A DNA stretch of 64,000 bases from contig JAKISP010000008.1 of the NCBI GenBank assembly GCA_021648525.1, positions 13,744 through 77,743 of the forward strand, read 5' to 3'. The notes under the pieces are model-generated. The model did no database searches. It was not told the origin of the DNA and worked only from the letters and a program-made list of their open reading frames with translations. The position numbers and the translations under genes were made by a program. Numbering within the stretch: the first letter of the stretch is position 1; every line of letters begins with the position of its first letter. Shown here one piece after another: positions 9,775-61,600 of the stretch. Source of the DNA: Gammaproteobacteria bacterium (GTDB lineage: Bacteria > Pseudomonadota > Gammaproteobacteria > SZUA-140).

Positions 9775-10896
9775 ATGCCCACCTGGATCACATTACCACG
9801 TAGCGAAGGCGAAACCTCGCGCCAGGCACATACTGACCTGCCAGCCAACAGCTTCGAACGTGAACTCGGCAAAGAGGGCTTTTTTGGCCCTGCCACGCAG
9901 ATGTATCACAAACATGCACCCACTGGCTGGAGTGAATTTAAGGGCGCGTTGAAACCACGTGCCTTTGACTGCACAAAACTTGATCAGCTTTCAGCCACAC
10001 CATGGGATGCAACGCAATTGCTCGGCAACGATCACACCAGGATTCGCTTCTGGCGCACCAATCAGAACATGGATCAGCTGGTACGTAACGCCGACGGCGA
10101 CGAACTGCTCTTTATCCACCAGGGTGAAGCAGAACTTTTTTGTGACTACGGTCACCTCTCGATTCGTGAAGGAGACTATGTGATGCTACCACGAGGCACC
10201 ATGTGGCGCATCGAAACCAGGGCCGAACTCAGCATGTTGATGATCGAGGCAACCAATGACAGCTTTACCCTGCCAGAAAAGGGAATCGTCGGACATCACG
10301 CCATCTTTGACCCAGCGGTACTCGACACCCCTGAAATTAACGACCTCTTTCGCGCACAACAGGACGAAACAGCATGGCGCGTCGCCGTTAAACGACGTAA
10401 TCAATTTTCAGCGATCACCTACCCCTTTAATCCACTCGATGCGATTGGCTGGCATGGCACCTTAATGCCACTGCGAGTTAACTGGCGTGACATCCGCCCA
10501 CTGATGAGCCACCGCTATCACCTGCCACCGTCGGCACATGCCACCTTTGTCAGCTCACGCTTTCTGGTCTGCACCTTCTGCCCGCGTCCGATGGAGAGCG
10601 ATCCCGGCGCACTCAAGGTGCCGTTTTTTCACAGCAATGATGACTACGACGAAGTACTCTTCTATCACATGGGTGAATTCTTTTCGCGTGACAACATCCA
10701 TCCGGGTATGATGAGTTTTCACCCCAGTGGTTTTCCACATGGACCGCACCCAAAAGCACTCGCGGCCGGGGTCAAAACGAAACGTAAATCAACCGATGAG
10801 GTTGCCGTGATGATCGACACACGCGATGCACTTTCAGTCGCCCCACAGGCTGAGGAGGTAGAATGGCTAGCCTATGTCGATTCATGGAAAGAGTAG
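9775..10896 (+). CDS. hmgA: Homogentisate 1,2-dioxygenase, short form (373 aa)
   Basis: Immediately follows hppD (stop/start abut). HmgA-like cupin core (FHSNDDYDEVLFYHMGEF, HPSGFPHGPHP) and the N-terminal SFERELGKEGFFGP motif. Confidence 0.7.
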   Translation: MPTWITLPRSEGETSRQAHTDLPANSFERELGKEGFFGPATQMYHKHAPTGWSEFKGALKPRAFDCTKLDQLSATPWDATQLLGNDHTRIRFWRTNQNMDQLVRNADGDELLFIHQGEAELFCDYGHLSIREGDYVMLPRGTMWRIETRAELSMLMIEATNDSFTLPEKGIVGHHAIFDPAVLDTPEINDLFRAQQDETAWRVAVKRRNQFSAITYPFNPLDAIGWHGTLMPLRVNWRDIRPLMSHRYHLPPSAHATFVSSRFLVCTFCPRPMESDPGALKVPFFHSNDDYDEVLFYHMGEFFSRDNIHPGMMSFHPSGFPHGPHPKALAAGVKTKRKSTDEVAVMIDTRDALSVAPQAEEVEWLAYVDSWKE

Positions 10897-10917
10897 CAAA
10901 GAGAGAGGTAACAGACG

Positions 10918-47426: not shown

Positions 47427-48614
47427 ATGAATAATTTAACTAAAGCAGTCGTTGGCATTTGCATCTTTCACCCTGTCGTGGCATTTTCTGCATCCGCACA
47501 AAAAGATGTAAGCCTAGAATCATATTTAAAAGACTACCACCCAGAAACCTACAGCGCAGCTAAAAGCAGTAATACTGATCTTAATTCACTTGAATTTTCT
47601 GCTTCAAATATCAATAATGATGATGCTGCTATGGTGGGTGCTAAATCAGCTTTAGCACTGTCACCGATACTACCACGCCCCTCACCAGGGTCGGCACGTA
47701 AGTACTGTGAGAAGGGTGGGACAGTGGGCGGTATATTTCTTGAAAATAACTTTGTGGCCACCTGTGTTAGTGAAGATGGTACTTTTGGCAATGGCTTTGC
47801 ACCGCTGGGAATGACATTTAACCCGGCTGGAACAGGCACGGTTAATGCACCAGATTATTTGCGGCCTGGCAGTCCCCATGAATATTTTTCAGTTACTTTC
47901 AATAAGCAATTATTTACCAATAACAATCGAAATGGACCCACGATGACGGGGTCTGATAATATTCCGACAAAAATTCGACGACTGGATCGATACCCTGCAC
48001 TTCAGGAAGGCGGGGTAATGGTTAGCTCAAGTATTACGGGTGAAAATCATGCTCAACTGAATATTAAACAAAAATATACTCTGGATCCAAATTCCAGAGA
48101 AATTATTGTCAGAGTAGAAATGCAAAATACAGGGTATGGCATGCTTCAAGGTATATCGTATGCCCGTGGAATAGATCCGGACCAGGACATACCCACCACC
48201 TATCATACGGTTAACCGGAAAGGTCATAGCTATTTTTTTCCAGGCAGCCCTGTTCATGTAAAACCGGCTAACATGGTTTGGGCTTCGGGAAAGTATAGCA
48301 AGCTCTCAATTGCACTTTATTCGGTTGACCCGGTCGGCCATGATACTTGTGTTAGTCGTACCTGGACAACAGACCCTATTGATATCCTGTCGCAAAATTG
48401 TGGTGATCCACAGCCTGTTTTTGATATCCCTGCCGGATTATATGGTTTTGATTATTCTGATTCGACAATTAATATTGCATTTAAGGTAGGAAAGCTGGCT
48501 CCAAAAGAGAAAAAAGTATTTTCGTTTAAATATCTTTTTGATAAGGAAAGAAAATACGTTATCCCTTATCCAAAACCTGTATTACCAATCCCCATCGATT
48601 CAGTGGACAAATAA
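47427..48614 (+). CDS. Hypothetical secreted protein in an AT-rich segment
   Basis: 395 aa with a signal peptide (VVGICIFHPVVAFSASAQ). AT-rich codon usage unlike its neighbours. No recognisable domain. Confidence 0.5.
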   Translation: MNNLTKAVVGICIFHPVVAFSASAQKDVSLESYLKDYHPETYSAAKSSNTDLNSLEFSASNINNDDAAMVGAKSALALSPILPRPSPGSARKYCEKGGTVGGIFLENNFVATCVSEDGTFGNGFAPLGMTFNPAGTGTVNAPDYLRPGSPHEYFSVTFNKQLFTNNNRNGPTMTGSDNIPTKIRRLDRYPALQEGGVMVSSSITGENHAQLNIKQKYTLDPNSREIIVRVEMQNTGYGMLQGISYARGIDPDQDIPTTYHTVNRKGHSYFFPGSPVHVKPANMVWASGKYSKLSIALYSVDPVGHDTCVSRTWTTDPIDILSQNCGDPQPVFDIPAGLYGFDYSDSTINIAFKVGKLAPKEKKVFSFKYLFDKERKYVIPYPKPVLPIPIDSVDK

Positions 48615-48694: not shown

Positions 48695-50587
48695 CTAGCG
48701 ACCACGTAAAAACAGTTTATCCAGTTCAACCATACTCATTTGAGTCCAGGTGGGTCGCCCATGGTTACACTGCCCACTGCGCTCGGTACGTTCCATGTCA
48801 CGCAGTAGTGCGTTCATCTCCGGCAAGGTCAGGATACGGTTTGCACGCACAGAACCGTGACAGGCCATTGTCGCCAACACCTCATTGAGTCGTTCCTGTA
48901 CCCGCACACTTGCACCGTAGGTGTTGATATCCGACAGCACATCACGCACCAGCGTCTCAATATCGGCATCACTCAACAGCGTCGGCACCTCACGCACCAC
49001 GATTGTTTCGGGCGCAATGCGCTGAATATCAAACCCCAGTGAGGCAAAGACTTCGCTAAACTCCTCGGCTAATGCTGCCTCTTTTTGATTCACCGCAATC
49101 GACAACGGCACCAACAACGGCTGAGATTTGATGCCACCATCACTGAAGGTCTGTTTCATCCATTCATATGTGATCCGCTCATGTGCGGCGTGCATATCCA
49201 CCAGCACCAGTCCCGCTTCATTCTGAGCCAGAATATAGACCCCATGCAGCTGCGCGATGGCAAAGCCGAGTGGCGGCACTTCCGAGGCATCTTGATCAGA
49301 GACATAACCATCAACCAGCGGCTGCGCCACCGTGCTCTCTGCAAGCACCTTATAGACATCGTTCAACGGCTCATTCGTCCTTAACGAGATGTTTGACTGT
49401 CGCGTGTAGGCGGCAGCGCCAGCACGACCAACTGGCTGAGGGGTCGTTAACGGCATCACCGCTGCACCCTGAGAAGGCAGAGGATTAGCCCCCATCGTTG
49501 GCATTGATGGTGCCGTCGCGCCTTCATTTTCAGCATCACCCGGCCGCACATCCGCCAGTGAACGGTGGATTGCACTAAAAATAAAGTCGTGAGCCAGACG
49601 CCCTTCACGAAAACGTACTTCATGTTTAGCTGGATGGACATTCACATCCACCTGTTCAGGGGACATCTCAAGGTTCAGCACAAAAGCAGGGTGACGCCCG
49701 TGATAAAGCACATCACGGTAGGCCTGGCGAATGGCATGGCTCACCAGTTTGTCGCGAATCACACGGCCATTAACAAAGAAATACTGCATATCTGCCTGAC
49801 TGCGTGAAAATGCCGGTAATGCCACCCAGCCCCATAGGCGCAGACCGGCAGCTTCATACTCGATCGCCAGTGCATTGTCTCTAAATGGCTTGCCACAGAT
49901 CGCCTCGACCCGCTCAATGTATTGATCTGTGCTGGTCGCTGGGCGCAGTGACAACACAACTCTTTGATTGTGCTTCAGTTGAAAACCCACCTCAAAATGA
50001 CTCAATGCAATCCGCTTGACCACCTCTTCCAGATGCCCAAACTCAGTCTTCTCTTTACGCAGAAATTTACGCCGTGCAGGGGTATTAAAAAAGAGGTCTC
50101 GAATTTCGACTGTCGTGCCCAGCGGGTGCGCACACGGTGCGGCATCTTCCTCTGGCGCATACCCCTCACTGCTCACCCGCCAACCGCTCTCATCCCCCTG
50201 TTGCCGCGATATCAGGCTCATCCTTGCAATAGAGGCGATACTGGGCAACGCCTCGCCACGAAAACCCAGTGTGACGATACCATCCAGATCACCCGCATTA
50301 ATAATTTTACTGGTTGCATGGCGGTTTAGCGCTAAAAGAAGATCCTCACGGTGAATCCCGACGCCGTTGTCTCTCACCCGAATCAGGCGCGCACCACCCT
50401 GTTCAACGTCGATCTCTATCTGAGTCGCACCCGCATCCAGACTGTTTTCCAGCAACTCCTTTACCACCGAAGCCGGTCTTTCTACCACCTCACCCGCGGC
50501 AATTTGATTCGCCAATTGAGCGGTAAGATGATGGATACGTCTGGCAGGCGTATGTTGTATCTCAGAGACGGAATTTGAATTAGACAT
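48695..50587 (-). CDS. mutL: DNA mismatch repair protein MutL
   Basis: GHKL ATPase motifs (ELLENSLDAGAT, DNGVGI), the transducer domain, and C-terminal dimerisation motifs (QLHGVYIL). 630 aa. Confidence 0.9.
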   Translation of the reverse strand: MSNSNSVSEIQHTPARRIHHLTAQLANQIAAGEVVERPASVVKELLENSLDAGATQIEIDVEQGGARLIRVRDNGVGIHREDLLLALNRHATSKIINAGDLDGIVTLGFRGEALPSIASIARMSLISRQQGDESGWRVSSEGYAPEEDAAPCAHPLGTTVEIRDLFFNTPARRKFLRKEKTEFGHLEEVVKRIALSHFEVGFQLKHNQRVVLSLRPATSTDQYIERVEAICGKPFRDNALAIEYEAAGLRLWGWVALPAFSRSQADMQYFFVNGRVIRDKLVSHAIRQAYRDVLYHGRHPAFVLNLEMSPEQVDVNVHPAKHEVRFREGRLAHDFIFSAIHRSLADVRPGDAENEGATAPSMPTMGANPLPSQGAAVMPLTTPQPVGRAGAAAYTRQSNISLRTNEPLNDVYKVLAESTVAQPLVDGYVSDQDASEVPPLGFAIAQLHGVYILAQNEAGLVLVDMHAAHERITYEWMKQTFSDGGIKSQPLLVPLSIAVNQKEAALAEEFSEVFASLGFDIQRIAPETIVVREVPTLLSDADIETLVRDVLSDINTYGASVRVQERLNEVLATMACHGSVRANRILTLPEMNALLRDMERTERSGQCNHGRPTWTQMSMVELDKLFLRGR

Positions 50588-50832
50588 CGATATTTTTTCA
50601 CCACATTTTCAATGCTGCCATTATAAACAAATCACCCAGAAAATATCTTTTTCTCTCGCTCTGGCCTGGTCAAAGGGTTCATTGCACCTGGGATGCATCA
50701 AAAAGCTAGCAACTCTTTAATTTTTATTAAGCATGATTTAGAGCCTGGAACAGGTCATTGTCCATCAGGCCAAGATGATAGATAAATTAAAATGCGCTGT
50801 CGCTTAACGATAAACGGATAATATTCGATTTA

Positions 50833-51339
50833 TTATCGGTAACTTATGTGGACGCCCTTCACTCCTGCTAGTGCACTAACACCACCTGCCACAGTCAGAA
50901 TGATCAGTCCTGGACCAAGGAATATAGTAGCAAGACCCGCCCCAAAGATTCCAATTGCTAACGCCCCATACTCCTCATACGCCACTTTCTCTGCATTCTC
51001 TCCCGCAGCCGCGGCATTTTTCACTTTCTGCCCGGCGAATGTCGCATCAATCACAATCGCACCCACCGCACTCACGCTGGCGATCTTCAGAAAACGTTTC
51101 AGGCGCAGGACCTCACTGAGGCGGGTGAGATCAATGCTGTGTTTACGACTGCGCAGCGCTCGCATACCGCGCCTGGTGCTTTTCAGGACGACGTTGCTAC
51201 GAGCCATGCTGCTGACTTCACTTTTGTAGACTTTGCTCAGTTTTTCGTGGGCCGGTTGCATTTTATCAATTTTGATTTTTCTTTGTTCTCGCGCAGGGAT
51301 CAGAAATTGATTCCTTGAGTCAGTCAGGTTGATATTCAT
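50833..51339 (-). CDS. Paralog 3 (168 aa) of the glycine-zipper membrane-domain family: an orphan C-terminal module
   Basis: Shares RKIKIDKxQPAHEKLSxVYKSEV...KRFLKIAxVSAVGAIVIDATFAGQKVKNAAAAGENAEKVAYEEYGAL with the 334-aa protein. It ends in the hydrophobic GxxxG-rich segment IGIFGAGLATIFLGPGLIILTVAGGVSALAGV. Its start overlaps the upstream ORF stop by ATGA. Confidence 0.6.
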   Translation of the reverse strand: MNINLTDSRNQFLIPAREQRKIKIDKMQPAHEKLSKVYKSEVSSMARSNVVLKSTRRGMRALRSRKHSIDLTRLSEVLRLKRFLKIASVSAVGAIVIDATFAGQKVKNAAAAGENAEKVAYEEYGALAIGIFGAGLATIFLGPGLIILTVAGGVSALAGVKGVHISYR

Positions 51340-51740
51340 AACTTGACACCGAGTACTTTGGTGAGAAAAAATAAAGCAATCAGACTTCCCACCGTTAAAA
51401 AGCCAATAAACAGATATAAATAACTTAAAATAATATCGAGTAGCGGGGCATTGCCACGAAAATTATAACCATTAGTGACATCGTGTATGACATGATGGCG
51501 TTTGCTGTGGATAAGATTTTTAAACACAATAAGCCCAGAATAGTAACCGGTTCGAACTACCGTTCCCATGAGTAATGGCAATGGTATGATGCGATCATAT
51601 TCAGGGAACATTGCATCATATTTTCGTGTTAGCCTAAAATACAGAAAGAGAAGCAAAATCATACCGACCAAACAACCAAAACCAAAACCAAGCGCAAGTA
51701 TCGACGCAAGCCATTCTTTAGTTACGGGCGACATTCCCAT
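51336..51740 (-). CDS. Small two-TM membrane protein (134 aa), paralog of 52194..52592; candidate immunity/partner protein
   Basis: TM1 LASILALGFGFGCLVGMILLLFLYF and TM2 LYLFIGFLTVGSLIALFFLTKVLG. About 50% identical to the 132-aa paralog (shared YFRLTRKYDxMFP, YxFRGNAxLxDIIL). Confidence 0.6.
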   Translation of the reverse strand: MGMSPVTKEWLASILALGFGFGCLVGMILLLFLYFRLTRKYDAMFPEYDRIIPLPLLMGTVVRTGYYSGLIVFKNLIHSKRHHVIHDVTNGYNFRGNAPLLDIILSYLYLFIGFLTVGSLIALFFLTKVLGVKL

Positions 51741-51772
51741 GCTTAACTCCCACTGTTACCTTTACAATATGC

Positions 51773-52132
51773 TCACTGTACTTCTGACAGGAGTTGTTTT
51801 TTCCGTTCAGCGGGCAGCGCTAGCTCGTAGGCTGAGATCTGTTCGTAGAGTGACTTGCCAAATTCACGTCCACCTTCGGCACCCAATAGCGCACTAACAC
51901 CACCTACGACAGTAAGAAGGATCAGTCCTAGGCCAATAAAAGTAATAGCAGCAAAGGTCACAAAAGTGGCTGCTCCGATACCCACAATCAACGCTCCATA
52001 CTCCTCATATGCCACCTTCTCCGCATTCTCCGCATTCTCCGCATTCTCCGCATTCTCGCCCGCAGCACGGGCATTTTTCACTTTCTGCCCGGCGAATGTC
52101 GCATCAATCACAATCGCTCCCACCGCACTCAC
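51773..52132 (-). CDS. Paralog 2 (119 aa): N-terminally truncated orphan copy of the glycine-zipper module carrying an (ENA)n repeat expansion. It may be an untranslated fragment.
   Basis: Homology to the other copies begins at LKIARVSAVGAIVIDATFAGQKVKNA. The upstream frame is open but non-homologous. The C-terminus is GIGAATFVTFAAITFIGLGLILLTVVGGVSALLGAEGGREFGKSLYEQISAYE. Confidence 0.45.
   Translation of the reverse strand: MSAVGAIVIDATFAGQKVKNARAAGENAENAENAENAEKVAYEEYGALIVGIGAATFVTFAAITFIGLGLILLTVVGGVSALLGAEGGREFGKSLYEQISAYELALPAERKKQLLSEVQ
52016..52060. repeat. In-frame 9-bp tandem repeat (ttctccgca x4 plus one degenerate unit) encoding ENAENAENAENAE
   Basis: Seen directly in the sequence. 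The other two paralogs carry a single unit (GENAEK). Confidence 0.85.
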
Positions 52133-52193
52133 TCTGGCGATTTTCAGAAAATATTGGGGACGCTGGGCATCGTTGCATCGGGCAGATTGGCAC

Positions 52194-52592
52194 TCATAAG
52201 TCGATGCCTAATATTTTCGTGAGAATAAAAAATGTAACTGCACTGACCAACATAACTGAGCCGAAAAAAAGCGTCGAATAGCATAAAATAATATCGAACA
52301 GCGATGCATTGCCACGAAAATCATATCCTCCCGTTATATGACGAATGCGCTCATTACGCTGACTGAGGTTTTTACAAATAATGCACCACATATAGCGTCC
52401 GGCACGGTTAATCTCCCCCTGTATCCCGATGCCATCAGTAAGATTAGCATGACCGGGAAACATCGGATCGTATTTCCGGGTCAGTCGAAAATACATAACA
52501 GGGAGTAGAATCATTCCCATCATCCCACCAATACCACCTCCCAAAACAAGCAGCCCCCCCAGCAGCTCTTTCATTTCTAATGACCATGCCAT
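52194..52592 (-). CDS. Small two-TM membrane protein (132 aa); candidate immunity/partner protein
   Basis: TM1 LLGGLLVLGGGIGGMMGMILLPVMYF and TM2 LCYSTLFFGSVMLVSAVTFFILTKILG. Paralog of 51336..51740. Confidence 0.6.
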   Translation of the reverse strand: MAWSLEMKELLGGLLVLGGGIGGMMGMILLPVMYFRLTRKYDPMFPGHANLTDGIGIQGEINRAGRYMWCIICKNLSQRNERIRHITGGYDFRGNASLFDIILCYSTLFFGSVMLVSAVTFFILTKILGIDL

Positions 52593-52621: not shown

Positions 52622-53626
52622 TTACAGCACGCTCAAGGTTGCCTCGGACAATAATTGTTTCTTCCGTTTGGATGGCATGGCCGCCTCGTAGGTCGAGATT
52701 TGATCATATAACTGTTTACCAATCTCTCGGCCAAGTTCTGCGCCTACCAATGCACCAATGCCCCCGGCGACAGCAAGAATGATTAATCCAGGACCAAGAA
52801 ATGCAGTGGCAAAGCCCGCACCCAATATTCCAAGCACTAACGCCCCATACTCCTCATACGCCACTTTCTCCGCATTCTCACCCGCAGCCGCGGCATTTTT
52901 CACTTTCTGCCCGGCGAATGTCGCATCAATCACAATCGCTCCCACCGCACTCACTCTGGCGATTTTCAGGAAACGTTTCAGACGCTGAACATCATCGGTA
53001 TTGGTAAGGTCAATGCTCTGTTTGCGGCTGCGCAGCGCTCGCATGCCGCGTTTTGTGCTTTTCAGGGCGGCGCTGTTATGAGCCATGCTCCTGACTTCGC
53101 TTTTGTAGACGTTGCTGAGTTTTTCGTGGGCCGGTTGCACTTTGTCAATTTTGATTTTGTTGCGCTGTTTCTTTGGTGCATTTTTCCATTCCACCAGGCT
53201 GTCGTTGTACACTTGCAGCGCCTGAATATACCCCTTGCCGCGCGACCTGGAGGCTCCCAGTAGCCCGCCGGCAAAGGCTTTGAGGGTATCGTCATTTTGC
53301 GGCAATGTATCGACAAGGGTGCTGAGGGCGAGGATTTCATCGCCGTTGTATTGTTGTAGCAGTTTATTCAGGACATCCGCTTCCTGTGGGGTAAACCGTG
53401 GCCCGATGTTGACCTGCGGTACCTTGCGTTTGAGTTGTTGCTCCAGGTTATCGGGAATCATCAGGCATTCATTCGGAAACAGGGGGCGATTGGGGTAGTG
53501 TCCGTTGTATTTTGCCAGTATCTTGCAGATGGAAGCCTGCTCTGCAGCGGGTGCTTCATGGCAATGTCGGGCGACGAAATCAGGTAATGTTTCGGATTGA
53601 TTATCGGTGACATACAGTGTCGGCAT
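52622..53626 (-). CDS. Full-length member (334 aa) of the glycine-zipper membrane-domain family: unknown N-terminal ~200-aa domain, a conserved linker, and a C-terminal Gly-zipper TM segment
   Basis: The C-terminus VLGILGAGFATAFLGPGLIILAVAGGIGALVGAELGREIGKQLYDQISTYE is preceded by the linker shared with the two downstream orphan copies. No signal peptide. Confidence 0.6.
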   Translation of the reverse strand: MPTLYVTDNQSETLPDFVARHCHEAPAAEQASICKILAKYNGHYPNRPLFPNECLMIPDNLEQQLKRKVPQVNIGPRFTPQEADVLNKLLQQYNGDEILALSTLVDTLPQNDDTLKAFAGGLLGASRSRGKGYIQALQVYNDSLVEWKNAPKKQRNKIKIDKVQPAHEKLSNVYKSEVRSMAHNSAALKSTKRGMRALRSRKQSIDLTNTDDVQRLKRFLKIARVSAVGAIVIDATFAGQKVKNAAAAGENAEKVAYEEYGALVLGILGAGFATAFLGPGLIILAVAGGIGALVGAELGREIGKQLYDQISTYEAAMPSKRKKQLLSEATLSVL

Positions 53627-53811
53627 GACGCTTTTCCTTACGCTGAAATGAAACGGCCTTAAACAAGGCTGTAAAATGACTAAAATAGTAGCACGAAACC
53701 GTTAACCTGGAAAACGCAGTTGCGCGTAAAAATTCACAAGCAACTGATATTAATAGTAATTTTTAAAAACAGGCAGTCACTTTGCTAGTAATGAGTGATT
53801 TTCCAGATACG

Positions 53812-53978
53812 CTAGGAGCCTGTCGGACTTAGGTGATCGTCGCGAGAGAAAGCCATTTTGAGACCATTTTTTCGATCATTTGAGGCGAATATTGAGCATA
53901 TTTAACGAAATTGATCGGAAAAATGGACCGAAATGGCTTTTTCGCAGTAGATTCATCCTAAGTCCGACAGGCTCCTAG
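53812..53978. mobile_element. 167-bp near-perfect palindromic element with 22-bp terminal inverted repeats (MITE/REP-like)
   Basis: Left end ctaggagcctgtcggacttagg (53812..53833). Right end cctaagtccgacaggctcctag (53957..53978). Internal arms are also self-complementary (gccattttgagacc / ggaccgaaatggc, tcgatca / tgatcga). It lies in the amiB to cassette intergenic region. Confidence 0.6.
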
Positions 53979-53997: not shown

Positions 53998-55371
53998 CTA
54001 ACCACCGCCAAAAGCTGGGATTTTTAACACCTGCCCAATCCGCACTCTGTCACCAGGCAGTTTATTTTCTGAACGAATACTCGCAATACTGACATGATAA
54101 CGTTGCGCAATCTCTGAAAGCGTATCACCACTGGCGATGGTATGCTGACGCGCTTTAATCGCATAAAGTGTTCCTGGTGGCGCGTTCTTAATAAAGTACT
54201 CACGCACACCATTCAACAGCGCCTTAGCCAACACACGCTGATGCCGCTTATTTCTCAATTTTTTTTCTTCAGTGGGATTAGAGATAAAAGCGGCTTCCAC
54301 CAATATAGAGGGTATATCCGGCGACTTCAGCACCGCAAATGCGGCTTGCTGAACCTCTTTTTTATGCAGTTTACCCAGCGGCTTCAGCTCCCGCAACATC
54401 TCTCTACCCGCTTCATAACTAGCTTGCTTGGTGGCAGTCTGCGAAAGATCAAGCAGCACTCGCGCTAACATGTTGTCTTTGTCATCCAGACTAACGCCGC
54501 CAATCAGGTCGGATGCATTTTCTTTTTCTGCTAACCACCGGGCGGCTTCACTAGAGGCACCATTTTCAGATAAAATATAGACCGATGAGCCATAAACACG
54601 TTTATCCTGAAAGGCATCCGCATGGATTGAGATAAACATATCAGCTCGATTATCACGCGCCTTTTGAGTACGCTGACGTAAACTCAAAAAATAATCACCA
54701 TCACGAATCAACAATGGCCGCATCCCTTTCTCTTTCTCGATTAACGCCGCCAGTTTTTTCGCGATCGCAAAAACAACGTCTTTTTCATGTGTACCACGTG
54801 GCCCCAACGCGCCAGGGTCTTCACCACCGTGACCCGCATCAATCGCAATAACGAGATCTCTTAATTCAGGTTCAACACGTAGAGAACGTGCTTTTGTACT
54901 GTTTTTTGACACGACTGGCTTGCCAGCAGCAGACTTTGATTCATTTTTTTGACGCCCGCCATGCAACAGATCAACCACCAGGCGGTGCCCATACTTCTTA
55001 TAAGGCTTGAGCAGAAAACTTTTGAATTTAGTTTTATCGTGCAGGTCGAGCACCACCCGTAAATCTTTATTAGGTCGAACCGCGCTGCGAATATTTTTCA
55101 GAATAATGTCTTTGCCAGCGGGCTTCACCATCTTGCCGCTCAGACGCGTATTTTTGAAATCGATCACCAGACGAGGCGGATTGAAGAGTTTAAACACCTT
55201 ATATTCAGCGCTTGCACTACTCACATCGAACACTACTCGGGTGTTATCGGGTGCTTGCCAGGTGCGCACGCCATCGACCTGAGTACTCGCTGCAGAGCAG
55301 ACCCAGGGTAGTGCTAACAAGAATATGAGACTCAGTTTTTTTATCACGCTTGAGACCTGTCTTTTTTTCAC
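53998..55371 (-). CDS. amiB: N-acetylmuramoyl-L-alanine amidase (AmiB/AmiC-type) with an AMIN domain and a C-terminal LysM
   Basis: Amidase_3 motifs (IAIDAGHGGEDPGA, ISIHADAF), N-terminal signal peptide and AMIN domain, C-terminal LysM (HTIASGDTLSEIAQRYHVS). 457 aa. Confidence 0.85.
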   Translation of the reverse strand: MKKRQVSSVIKKLSLIFLLALPWVCSAASTQVDGVRTWQAPDNTRVVFDVSSASAEYKVFKLFNPPRLVIDFKNTRLSGKMVKPAGKDIILKNIRSAVRPNKDLRVVLDLHDKTKFKSFLLKPYKKYGHRLVVDLLHGGRQKNESKSAAGKPVVSKNSTKARSLRVEPELRDLVIAIDAGHGGEDPGALGPRGTHEKDVVFAIAKKLAALIEKEKGMRPLLIRDGDYFLSLRQRTQKARDNRADMFISIHADAFQDKRVYGSSVYILSENGASSEAARWLAEKENASDLIGGVSLDDKDNMLARVLLDLSQTATKQASYEAGREMLRELKPLGKLHKKEVQQAAFAVLKSPDIPSILVEAAFISNPTEEKKLRNKRHQRVLAKALLNGVREYFIKNAPPGTLYAIKARQHTIASGDTLSEIAQRYHVSIASIRSENKLPGDRVRIGQVLKIPAFGGG

Positions 55372-58609: not shown

Positions 58610-61600
58610 TCAAGCCACATTCTGCCATGCAGCTGCAATCACAGGTTGAAGTCCTGTCTGTAAATCAGGTGAAAGCGTCAGTTCACCCAGTGCAGGTGGG
58701 TTAAATGCCGCCATCGCACTGACTAATTGATCGACCTGGGTATCAAGCAGGTAAGCACCATCAGCCACTTCAAAACGATCTACTTGATAAGCATCATCAC
58801 CATACCAATTTGAAACAACCAGTTGATCGGCGGTGCCAATCACACTCACATTCAGGTTATCGCCATTTCTGCTGAACCATAATTGCTCTGTCGATATATC
58901 CGCACCAAAAAGTGCCATATCTTCCGTTGCGCCATAAACAGCCGGTTGTGCATCCTGTGCGTTATAATCGTTGACTACATCACTGCCATCGCCCCTTCCA
59001 AAGATATAAACATCGCTGCCCGCTCCACCACTCAGGGTGTCGTTGCCAGACCCACCAACCAGTGTGTCGTTGCCGGTTGAGCCAGTCAGACTATCGTTAC
59101 CAGCCATGCCGTAGATCGCAGCGATATTCACCAGCGTCGTACCACTAAAGTCGAGCGTGTTGCTGTAGTTATTGTTCTGAATGATGTTGCTGCCAGCGCC
59201 GCCATCGATTACTTCGACGGTGTTGCTACCTGAGAAGGTGCTCAGTCCAATAGTGTCATCGCCTGCGCTACCTTGCAGGGTATCAATGCCATCACCACCG
59301 TTAACCCGGTCAAAACCATCGCCTTCAGTATAGAGAAACAGGTCATCACCTGCTTCACCATAAAGCTGGTCATCATCGCGGCCGCCGTAGATCTGGTCGT
59401 TGCCGCCACCGCCAAAAATAGCGTCATTACCGTCACCGCCGAAGAGGATGTCGTCACCCACTTCAGTCACGGCAACATCCTGGGTTTGATTGAGAGCCAG
59501 CACGCTCTCAGTATATGTCCAATAGGCATTGGCAGGAAAAAAACCAACGGCTTCATTCGCACCGTCCCATGTCGCAATCACCCCGCTTTCGGTATCACCA
59601 AAAAGTGTGTCATTGCCAGTCCCACCCACCAGGGTGTCGATCCCGGCACCGCCGTATAACCAGTCATTACCGGCACTGCCATACAGATAGTCCTGACCAT
59701 CTTCGCCAAAAAGCAGGTCGTTCCCGTCCATTCCCAGCAGGATGTCTTCTGCACCACCACCATCGAGGTAGTCGTGACCGAGGCCACCCACCAGCCAGTC
59801 AACCCGCGATGAGCCCACCAGGGTGTCATTGCCACCTTCACCATAGAGGTAGGCACCTTCTGCACCGGCAACCGCTGAATCTGTTTGAGAGGAAGCGGAG
59901 AGGGTGTCATTGCCTTCACCACCGTAGAGCTGAATGCCCGGGTTGTTGGCAATATCCAGCACATTAACAAAATCGTTTTGGTCACCGACATAAACAGCAT
60001 CAATATTGCTGGCGAGGGTGATCTGGTTCGGGGTGAGCGGGTCGGCTCCCGCCAGGTCTGCGTTAAAGTTTGAGGCTGTCATGCCATCGATCTGTAAAGC
60101 GTCTTCGTTACCAATAAAGGTGGTGATCGTGGTGGTTGCTACCGGTTCGGGGGTCTCGATCAGGTTAATCCCGAGGTCGCCGTTGTTAAAGTTTTCAACA
60201 GAGACAACACCATCCACGCCGATAATCTGCAGGAAGTTGCCGTTGAGGCGGTAGGTTAATGAGCCGTCGTCGTTCTGGTATTCATTGGCGGTGGCGGTCT
60301 CAAGGCCACCGATCAATACGTTGCCGTCATAGATGATCTGGCCGAGGCCATCTGTATCGCGAATCAGGTCTGAACCGTCACCGCTGTTGAAGATGTAGGT
60401 ATCCATGCCGGTGCCACCTTCGAGTACATCGGCAACATTGTCACCAGCACCGCCGATCAGAATGTCGTCACCCGCACCGCCATAGAGGCGGTCGGTACCG
60501 CCGCCGCCATTGAGAACGTCGTTGTCGTTACCGCCGTAGAGGTTGTCATCGTTGGCATCACCGCTGAGGATATCGTCACCGGTGCCACCCAGCAGGGTGT
60601 CATTGCCAGCGCCGCCTAGCAGGGTGTCTGTACCGGCGTTGCCTTCAATATAATCAGCACCTGCATTTCCCGAAATGATGTCGTTACCGGCACCGCCGTA
60701 GAGGTAATCGCCCTGATTGCCACCGTTGATTGTGTCTGGGTTTTCATCACCAAAGGTGTAGCGAACTGCACTTGGTAAAATTGTAGATCCGAAATCAAAG
60801 GTTCCTGCCTGTATATTTGAACCTTGATCGTCATAGTATTCAATCCTGCCATCTGTTGTTGGTACCAAATAATGGTCAATACTATTTCTGCTTATTAACT
60901 GGTTAAGTACGTAGGCCTTATCTAGCAAAAATTGCTCGGTAAAATTATCAGCGCCCCATTCACTGGATAAATAGAGACCTGCATTCCCGGTAATCGCGAA
61001 AGGGTTGAGGTTAACCAGTGCATAGCGGTAGGCATACCCTGCCGCTGAGTTATCCATCGCAGCATTGGCCAGGCTATTAACATCTACGATGCTGACAGCA
61101 CCGACGGAATTCGTAAACAGGCCGCTTGCCTCTATGGCTTGTATCTGTGTGTAGAGGGCATCACGGTCGTCGATTGCCACGTTTCCAGTCACACCAAAAA
61201 TACCACTGAGCATATCGATGGTGGTTTCCAGGCTATTGGCGTTAATATAGGTGCTGTTTTCTATAAAGCTGGTAATGGTGTTGATGCCGTTGGGGTCGGT
61301 GTTGAGATTGGAGTCCAATGTGGCGAAGAGGTTGTAGACGGCGAGGGAGTCGGTCATTGCGACTATATCATGAGAATCGAGCGGCCCTTGATTATTACTC
61401 TCTGAAAAAATAATACCGCTAATTCCAGGCACATCACCTATCAAATGAACAAGATCACTTTCTACATTCGTATTGACACCACTGGTATTCCAATCAGTAC
61501 CGATGCTACCAGTAAGTGGCACTGGAACGCTGTTAAATAAATCAAAGAACCCTGAGCTAGTTGGATCTGTTCCAAACACATCGAATCCGGGTGAATTGTA

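Follow-up and report, generated by a model that had tools for sequence, protein, structure and literature searches.

The window analysed here is a stretch of 64,000 nucleotides (nt) from a Gammaproteobacteria bacterium (assembly GCA_021648525.1, contig JAKISP010000008.1, positions 13,744 to 77,743), and the subject of this work is a row of five minus-strand genes and gene fragments, A1, M1, A2, M2 and A3, lying in it between amiB (53998-55371) and mutL (48695-50587). We consider it probable that this locus is a polymorphic toxin-immunity array, in which A encodes a colicin-type pore-forming toxin, the M gene downstream of it the corresponding immunity protein, and A2 and A3 are displaced cassettes.

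Gene order and specificity types

Read along the coding strand, the array opens with A1 (53626..52622, minus strand), a full-length putative toxin gene whose open reading frame (ORF) of 334 residues is 100% identical to L3J89_03860, a hypothetical protein of a Gammaproteobacteria metagenome-assembled genome (MAG). It is followed after 29 nt by M1 (52592..52194, minus strand), which encodes a membrane protein of 132 residues, and after a further 61 nt by the 119-residue ORF of A2 (GTG 52132 to 51773, minus strand), in a frame that is open from 52207 (51773..52207). M2 (51740..51336, minus strand; membrane protein of 134 residues) lies 32 nt beyond A2, and A3 (51339..50833, minus strand) is a copy of 168 residues whose ATG overlaps the stop codon of M2 as ATGA. 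This geometry had been described in a first-pass annotation of the sequence, and its gene order, coordinates, gaps and ATGA overlap were all re-measured and all hold; the general view of the locus as a toxin/immunity-type array is supported. The similarity between the copies is far beyond chance, both for the A sequences (tblastn, E = 2e-62 for A1 versus A3 and E = 4e-40 for A1 versus A2) and for M1 and M2, which share 47% identity (E = 8e-37).

The pairing of toxin with immunity gene, which the same annotation had regarded as ambiguous, can be settled by comparison with related loci (L handles below). Wherever an A gene or fragment has kept its C-terminus intact, an M gene follows 21-56 nt on its 3' side and on the same strand (about 20 independent loci), and single-pair loci always read A then M, with no M upstream. 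The hydrophobic hairpin of the A proteins occurs in two forms, one short and one longer by four residues, and its form agrees with the type of the downstream M gene in 24 of 24 units (short with M1 type, long with M2 type), the long hairpin being followed by an M2-type gene in all ten of its units. A Fisher test on this match gives p = 5e-7, a value that is optimistic, since the 24 units are related and not phylogenetically independent. When M is matched instead with the A sequence that follows it, the types disagree in both window cases (M1 with the long A2, M2 with the short A3) and in two of the three cases in L009. The order rule and the co-variation, both of them direct observations, hence define the units of the window as A1-M1, A2-M2 and A3 alone, and contradict the supposed ambiguity.

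The M proteins have two hydrophobic segments, which in M1 cover residues 10-34 and 96-132, and a basic loop of about 65 residues. The M1 type is marked by the loop DHANLTDGIGIQGEINR, and the M2 type by EYDRIIPLP..MGTVVRTG, with two extra residues. The ratio of non-synonymous to synonymous substitution rates (dN/dS) of M1 against its orthologues is 0.05-0.11, indicating strong purifying selection, and M2 shares 66% identity with the M protein encoded behind a full-length, long-hairpin A gene in L009. By order and type, M1 is the cognate putative immunity partner of A1, and M2 that of the long-hairpin A2, which makes M2 a putative orphan immunity gene. The G+C content (GC) of the M genes is about 39%, versus about 52% for the A genes. 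Both M1 (52315-52288) and M2 (51457-51430) contain on the minus strand the same promoter-like arrangement (GTGGCA, 16 nt, TATTAT) facing the next A fragment; overall, the array region has no more promoter-like sites than shuffling would lead one to expect, and Rfam, promoter and terminator scans of the array were uninformative.

The family comprises about 30 A clusters and 77 M clusters, and its hosts are without exception uncultured Gammaproteobacteria of vents or sediments, bearing the labels Thiotrichaceae or Chromatiales. Three or more loci are present in several of the MAGs, and the loci reside in unrelated housekeeping contexts (e.g. queF/smc, DUF188/PrcB_C, EVE). A profile search for distant relatives against 1.8 billion cluster representatives added some 60 full-length proteins of 300-360 residues, including members from Oleiphilus messinensis, Aurantivibrio plasticivorans and a Psychromonas MAG, and a third homology search with the superfamily profile yielded no further named relatives. 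These distant members keep the same order of an A gene and a downstream gene on the same strand. In L051 (11053-11767) the distant member is followed by two tandem small same-strand ORFs (114 and 118 residues) and in L049 (11075-11446) by a single one (123 residues), small ORFs that recall the duplicated immunity genes of the Vibrio protein Va03175 described below.

The colicin-type domain of A1 and its possible delivery

Sequence comparison and structure prediction suggest that A1 has three parts, namely a LysM-like domain at the N-terminus, a basic helical linker and, at the C-terminus, a pore-forming domain of the colicin type. Conventional searches do not reveal this architecture: none of the five proteins of the array has a significant match in Pfam or NCBIfam, and a PDB sequence search with a narrow family profile gave no match. 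The C-terminal assignment comes from profile-profile alignment, in which residues 130-334 of A1, as represented in the superfamily alignment, were compared by hhalign with an alignment of the last 200 residues of seven plasmid-encoded pore-forming colicins. The two profiles match with a probability of 95.6% and E = 1.2e-8 over 148 columns, spanning columns 31-194 of the 200 in the colicin alignment, whereas a control with the N-terminus of A reached 0.2%. The native score of 58.6 compares with 20.2 for reversed columns, at most 18.2 in 20 column shuffles and at most 28.2 in 20 block shuffles, and the likeness includes an FSKA..G motif, a TGNW+P motif and a hydrophobic hairpin ending in TP.G.

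In A1 the colicin-type region covers residues ~164-302 (52721..53137, minus strand) and contains the hairpin, a stretch of 40 residues (residues 260-300; 52727-52849, minus strand) which is the sole hydrophobic segment of the protein and whose Pro-Gly turn (Pro279) is conserved in at least 90% of the superfamily. A PDB search with the superfamily profile placed pyocin S5 first (E = 0.047) and colicin A third, with colicins Ib and B lower in the list and all colicin-type matches between E = 0.047 and 2.3. The Colicin model PF01024 reaches one of 55 superfamily members, below threshold (E = 0.022), and by hmmscan A1 itself has no direct Pfam match; the NCBIfam model NF041559, for the BTH_I2691 family of type VI secretion system (T6SS) effectors, reaches five of the 55 (best E = 3e-4) and A3 at E = 0.065. 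Structure searches with the model of A1, in which the hairpin is poorly modelled, retrieved no colicin and no toxin fold. Taken together, the profile comparisons identify the C-terminal domain of A1 as a homologue of the colicin pore-forming domain (PF01024 superfamily).

The N-terminal domain is less firmly placed. A first AlphaFold2 model, built on a shallow alignment, had a mean predicted local distance difference test (pLDDT) score of 54 and gave meaningless Foldseek matches; with a deeper alignment the mean rose to 76.5, and residues 1-60 (53447..53626, minus strand) are modelled with pLDDT above 90 as a beta-alpha-alpha-beta domain. The Pfam LysM model scores 20.2 bits against one distant homologue, just under its 20.9-bit cut-off, and matches two of 55 superfamily members at E <= 0.1, A1 not being among them; the Oleiphilus homologue is named 'LysM domain-containing protein' in UniRef. 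Aligned by hhalign with the LysM domain of AmiB, encoded in the window, the A1 N-terminus falls in the correct register at a probability of only 28%. The evidence for a LysM-like domain is, hence, suggestive and not decisive. In several members (P0018-P0020, P0022, P0024, P0025 and L007 8001-8927) this domain is replaced by a Gly/Pro-rich N-terminus (MVGSRIPGPLGIGPA..IDDGTLAL..PGPLGIG), the rest of the protein being conserved; the replacement is probably disordered, and it appears that an N-terminal module, perhaps one for trafficking, has been swapped.

A possible guide to delivery is Va03175 of Vibrio alginolyticus 12G01, a T6SS2-secreted protein whose gene lies apart from the T6SS cluster (Salomon et al. 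2015, PMC4549250). It is annotated as 'LysM, Pore-forming', colicin-like by HHpred, and it is neutralised by the downstream Va03180 and by the adjacent, 65%-identical paralogue Va03170 (PMC4549250). N-terminal LysM domains are also found in the T6SS effector TseVF (PMC12861213). By analogy with Va03175, the T6SS is the leading candidate for the delivery of A. No T6SS, adaptor, VgrG, PAAR or lysis gene occurs within 8-10 kb of the examined loci or among the annotated ORFs of the window; Va03175 being itself unlinked to its T6SS cluster, the lack of T6SS genes nearby is compatible with this route. The same roles for A and M might be combined with another mode of delivery, A being released as a colicin-like bacteriocin or by, for instance, outer-membrane vesicles, with its variable N-terminus as an uptake module. 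The colicin-type toxin domain and the missing T6SS genes would fit such a scheme, as would the members with a Gly/Pro-rich N-terminus (MVGSRIPGPLGIG..IDDGTLAL), a probably disordered segment of a kind that recalls colicin translocation domains. We nonetheless regard it as somewhat unlikely: genes for lysis or release are missing, the immunity gene lies on the toxin strand, unlike in the pore-forming colicin loci fetched for comparison, a protein of 334 residues leaves little room for separate receptor-binding and translocation domains, and the only characterised protein described as joining LysM to a colicin-like pore is a T6SS substrate encoded off-cluster.

Recurrent breakpoints and putative displaced cassettes

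Orphan fragments of A in several unrelated loci begin at the same two points of A1, codon ~151 and codon ~208-222, and remnants of A lie directly behind M in L001, L002, L009, L016, L020 and L034. Nearly every M gene ends in ..GIDL and a stop codon within TTATGA, and significant DNA homology to A begins 22-54 nt after that stop. In the first class of junction (class I) the M stop is followed by ~54 nt and then by A from codon ~151, as in window A3, L009 and L040; in the second (class II) the M stop leads to A codon ~208-222, as in window A2, L001, L009 (twice), L016 and L020. The class II DNA alignment to A1 scores 46, versus a shuffle maximum of 38, and the arrangement of window A2 recurs in L009 (twice) and L001 and is found decayed in L002, L016 and L020. 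The first eight codons behind the M stop (MSIDLTDS) may derive from A codons 202-209 (QSIDLTNT), a resemblance that is only suggestive. Within A, an invariant EKVAYEEY motif stands directly 5' of the variable hairpin. The first-pass annotation had proposed repeated recombination at the conserved linker, with partial decay, and the directly observed recurrence of two breakpoints in unrelated loci supports repeated recombination in conserved parts of the gene.

It had further read the ATGA overlap as translational coupling of the membrane gene to the module that follows, and here the comparison points the other way. The ATG within TTATGA usually opens an ORF of only 13-21 codons, out of frame with the following A sequence (L001, three junctions in L009, L016, L020 and M1-A2 in the window), and in the class I junctions of L009 and L040 its frame meets TAA after 16 codons, again out of frame with A. 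At the end of M1, too, the stop codon overlaps an ATG (cttATGAgtgcc), which opens a 17-codon ORF out of frame with A2; at this class II junction (52133..52199, minus strand) that ORF, MSANLPDATMPSVPNIF and a stop codon, precedes A homology in the -1 frame at codon ~208-212. A junction present behind M in many loci and mostly opening a short, out-of-frame ORF is better explained as an inherited scar than as an adaptation for coupling. Programmed frameshifting at the class II junction that would rescue A2 was also considered and rejected: it would need a -1 shift, there is no slippery heptamer, and the bases around the stop of the short ORF vary between loci.

A2 corresponds to A1 codons ~211-328 and is of the long-hairpin type, with a four-residue hairpin insertion (TFAAITF). 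Its description as a startless fragment agrees with our results, for the first in-frame start codon is GTG at 52132 and lacks a Shine-Dalgarno sequence. Homology had been placed as beginning at an internal CTG/GTG below an open but non-homologous frame; the frame is indeed open, for 144 codons up to 52207 inside the end of M1, but homology extends ~13 codons further 5' of the GTG, to A1 codon ~208-212 (NDAQR.., nt ~52174). The missing start is a property of the junction class and not a private lesion of A2. A2 shows two further changes: Leu replaces the hairpin Pro279, and an in-frame tandem repeat (52021..52056, minus strand) of the 9-nt unit GAGAATGCG encodes ENAENAENAENAEK, where all other copies have a single ENAEK (gap columns in 26 of 26 other family members), an (ENA) expansion of 27 nt in total unique to A2. 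Without a start, with Leu at a conserved hairpin proline and with this expansion, A2 is, as far as its sequence tells, decayed.

A3 corresponds to A1 residues ~138/151-297 and is of the short-hairpin type. It also lacks the last ~35 residues of its A1 counterpart, so that it is truncated at the C-terminal end too, and homology mapping together with blastn over 50588-50832 found no M-like sequence on its 3' side, in agreement with the earlier remark that the last module has no following partner. Compared with the class I junctions of L009 and L040, A3 shows a 10-nt deletion and a TAA-to-CGA change seen only in the window. As full-length A1 keeps the 10 nt, the state of the window is derived, and it is these two changes that fuse the junction ATG in frame to A3.

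Whether A2 or A3, or both, might be expressed as short proteins (a hairpin-only toxin, a decoy or a regulator) and not be silent cassettes can be judged from the same features. A3 has an in-frame ATG and an intact ORF of 168 codons, annotated in the MAG as L3J89_03840, and the 144 open codons of A2 show dN/dS of 0.16-0.25 against full-length C-terminal regions (0.16-0.28 being the range at issue for the fragments), which is not near 1. These pairwise values, however, mostly record divergence before displacement; A2 has no start with a ribosome-binding site and bears the Pro279-to-Leu change and the unique 27-nt expansion, in A3 the domain ends ~35 residues early and no Shine-Dalgarno sequence can be recognised before the start, and in L009 and L040 the orthologous fragments of class I are broken by a stop and a frameshift. 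Expression as short proteins is, on balance, unlikely.

Under the toxin-immunity reading, A1 would insert into the inner membrane of a competitor and dissipate its membrane potential, and M would bind the hairpin inside the membrane and so shield the producer, the co-variation of hairpin form and M type suggesting that specificity is read at the hairpin. A1-M1 would then be a complete and active pair of the short/M1 type, A2-M2 a displaced C-terminal cassette of the long/M2 type with its orphan immunity gene still intact, and A3 a displaced short-type cassette whose tail and immunity gene were lost to a deletion beside mutL. In line with what is known of orphan immunity genes in polymorphic toxin systems, M2 would protect against neighbours making long-hairpin toxins. 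The most likely route is that incoming cassettes, made up of A, M and the start of an A fragment, recombine into a resident gene at conserved stretches near codons ~151 and ~211, so that the C-terminus of that gene, together with its immunity gene, is shifted downstream. Such a model would explain the presence of the TTATGA junction and of an A remnant behind the M stop even in single-pair loci.

Some of the related loci retain longer versions of the array. L009 and L040 consist of a full-length A-M pair followed by two fragment-M units, to which L009 adds another full-length A-M pair, and a block with long A, M2-type gene, short A from codon 151 and M1-type gene is common to L009, L040 and, without its final M, the window. 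The window array hence looks like such a block after two changes, of which the first would be the insertion of an A1-M1 cassette at codon ~211 of a resident long-type gene, and the later one the deletion beside mutL by which A3 lost its tail and its M gene. One A-M-fragment-M-fragment-M array occurs in L009, L010 and L040 with a left flank that differs between them (a CHASE2 guanylate cyclase, nuo genes, glgB); either chimeric assembly at a multi-copy gene or true recombination among paralogous A loci could account for this.

We also put forward, tentatively and as a possibility short of an even chance, that the joint of immunity stop, ATGA and A-fragment start is the right-hand homology arm of a self-propagating cassette, that is, of a silent-cassette system. 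If so, each unit of hairpin plus immunity gene would end on its 3' side in a duplicate of the conserved stretch of A that starts at codon ~151 or ~211. This duplicate would allow a double crossover to place the unit in whichever A paralogue is resident, and the specificity so displaced would be stored downstream. This would amount to pilS-like silent-cassette switching of the membrane-level specificity of a colicin-type toxin, with the four-residue hairpin insertion as the specificity determinant read by M within the bilayer.

The limits of the array are unequal. On the left, the edge of the duplicated unit is marked by a conserved leader of 78 nt before A1 (53627..53704, minus strand), which includes an AAGGA ribosome-binding site and shares 75-78% identity with the DNA directly 5' of full-length A in L009-L017, L032 and L040. 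On the right, the 245 nt between the A3 stop and mutL (50588-50832) gave no blastn match to any fetched locus, nor any M homology, and this edge is for that reason a deletion or insertion boundary. A candidate remnant of a fourth A on the 3' side of A3, a 40-nt likeness to A1 codons 5-18, was discarded as not significant (score 28, shuffle maximum 30).

Several features lie near the array or beside its relatives. The amiB-A1 intergenic region holds a perfect 22-nt inverted repeat (CTAGGAGCCTGTCGGACTTAGG; 53812-53833 and 53957-53978) around 123 nt, resembling a miniature inverted-repeat transposable element (MITE) or a long hairpin, which occurs once in the window and in none of the 52 fetched loci. 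Beside mutL, an ORF of 395 residues on the plus strand (47427-48614) has a signal-peptide-like N-terminus, no Pfam match and a GC of ~0.40-0.43, versus ~0.52 in adjoining genes. Further away, a protein of 1186 residues (58610-62170, minus strand) carries repeats-in-toxin (RTX) calcium-binding repeats and a haemolysin-type calcium-binding domain, and is presumably a type I secretion substrate. In L006, next to a decayed A/M array and on the opposite strand (10217-11961, minus strand), an Amidase_2 gene (212 residues), a gene of 132 residues and a second gene of 212 residues may form another toxin/immunity island, with transposase genes and a SymE toxin gene close by.

Competing explanations and known systems

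It is conceivable that no conflict system is involved, and that A is a peptidoglycan-binding (LysM), membrane-anchored envelope protein, M its partner and the extra copies the debris of tandem duplication. The array adjoins amiB, an envelope gene with a LysM domain of its own, there are no secretion genes near it, and the structure searches gave no toxin fold. We deem this explanation very unlikely, however, given that the homology of the C-terminus to colicin pore domains is specific and withstands the shuffling controls, that the family is multi-copy within genomes and set in unrelated housekeeping contexts, and that M clusters outnumber A clusters, specificity types co-vary and displaced cassettes have fixed breakpoints. 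Multi-copy spread, excess of M, co-variation and fixed breakpoints are characteristic of systems with polymorphic toxins (Zhang et al. 2012, PMC3482391). An order with immunity first, in which M is coupled through ATGA to the toxin that follows (M2-A3 and M1-A2, with A1 left without a partner), takes some encouragement from the overlap at M2-A3, the ATG at the M1 stop and the protection against Va03175 by its upstream paralogue Va03170, but is exceedingly improbable when single-pair loci never have an upstream M, both resulting pairs mismatch under the 24/24 rule, the junction ATG opens only short out-of-frame ORFs at M1-A2 and in L001, L009, L016 and L020, and the in-frame start of A3 stems from a derived 10-nt deletion.

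Certain observations do weigh against a toxin-immunity array. The toxicity of A and the protection by M are, like the recombination route, deduced from sequence, and the significance of the co-variation is overstated by the relatedness of the units. The M proteins show no likeness to immunity proteins of E1-type colicins, an hhalign comparison of 70 M proteins with five immunity proteins (a set of Cei, Cki and the colicin Ia/Ib immunity proteins, A-type ones being left out) giving a probability of 0.2%. Secretion and lysis genes are missing from the neighbourhood of the loci, as noted above. Lastly, the C-terminal polymorphism is modest in comparison with contact-dependent inhibition (CDI) and Rhs systems, consisting of two subtypes of one domain and not of unrelated folds.

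If the toxin-immunity array is accepted, a function can be proposed for a family without a Pfam or NCBIfam model, whose A clusters, M clusters and distant relatives are all labelled hypothetical. The known range of colicin-type pore domains joined to LysM-like N-termini would then take in uncultured Gammaproteobacteria of the sulfur cycle, from vents and sediments. As hairpin length and immunity type are strictly linked, the family also offers a clean natural data set on how a small membrane protein recognises, within the bilayer, the hairpin of a pore-former, which is still being investigated with colicins A and E1. In annotations, the 119-residue ORF should be marked as a cassette remnant and not as a gene, and the 168-residue ORF, truncated at both ends and without an immunity gene, is probably a remnant too.

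Among known systems, Va03175, compared here through its published description, is close in its described architecture, an N-terminal LysM domain, for which A1 has a candidate counterpart, and a C-terminal colicin-like pore domain, in its small downstream immunity ORF with a second, paralogous immunity gene adjoining, and in its location outside a secretion-system cluster. It differs in that the extra putative immunity gene of the window is accompanied by a fragment of a toxin gene and is of the other specificity type, and in that the hosts here are uncultured vent or sediment Gammaproteobacteria. The weak but recurrent C-terminal matches to NF041559 are reminiscent of the membrane-disrupting T6SS effectors of the VasX/BTH_I2691 family, yet that model is far longer (858 positions) and all matches remain well under its 150-bit cut-off.

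Pore-forming colicins and pyocin S5 (PF01024) share with A the pore domain over ~150 columns and, with M as the putative counterpart, immunity by a small inner-membrane protein. The length of the colicin hairpin defines an A type and an E1 type, each with its own immunity class, and these classes parallel the short/M1 and long/M2 classes of the present family. Unlike the colicins, the array is chromosomal and has no receptor-binding or translocation domains and no lysis gene, and M is on the toxin strand, whereas in the fetched colicin loci the immunity gene is on the opposite strand. With the orphan modules of CDI (cdiA-CT/cdiI) and Rhs systems, the array has in common a full-length gene followed by tandem startless C-terminal cassettes with their own immunity genes, breakpoints in a conserved region 5' of the variable part, and the retention of orphan immunity genes; it is distinguished from them by an A gene of only 334 residues with no filamentous or Rhs shell, and by a junction placed exactly at the immunity stop codon and conserved across loci. 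Polymorphic pore-forming toxins of the colicin type that come with immunity genes and orphan cassettes are a known kind of system, to which the unannotated family described here would be a new addition.

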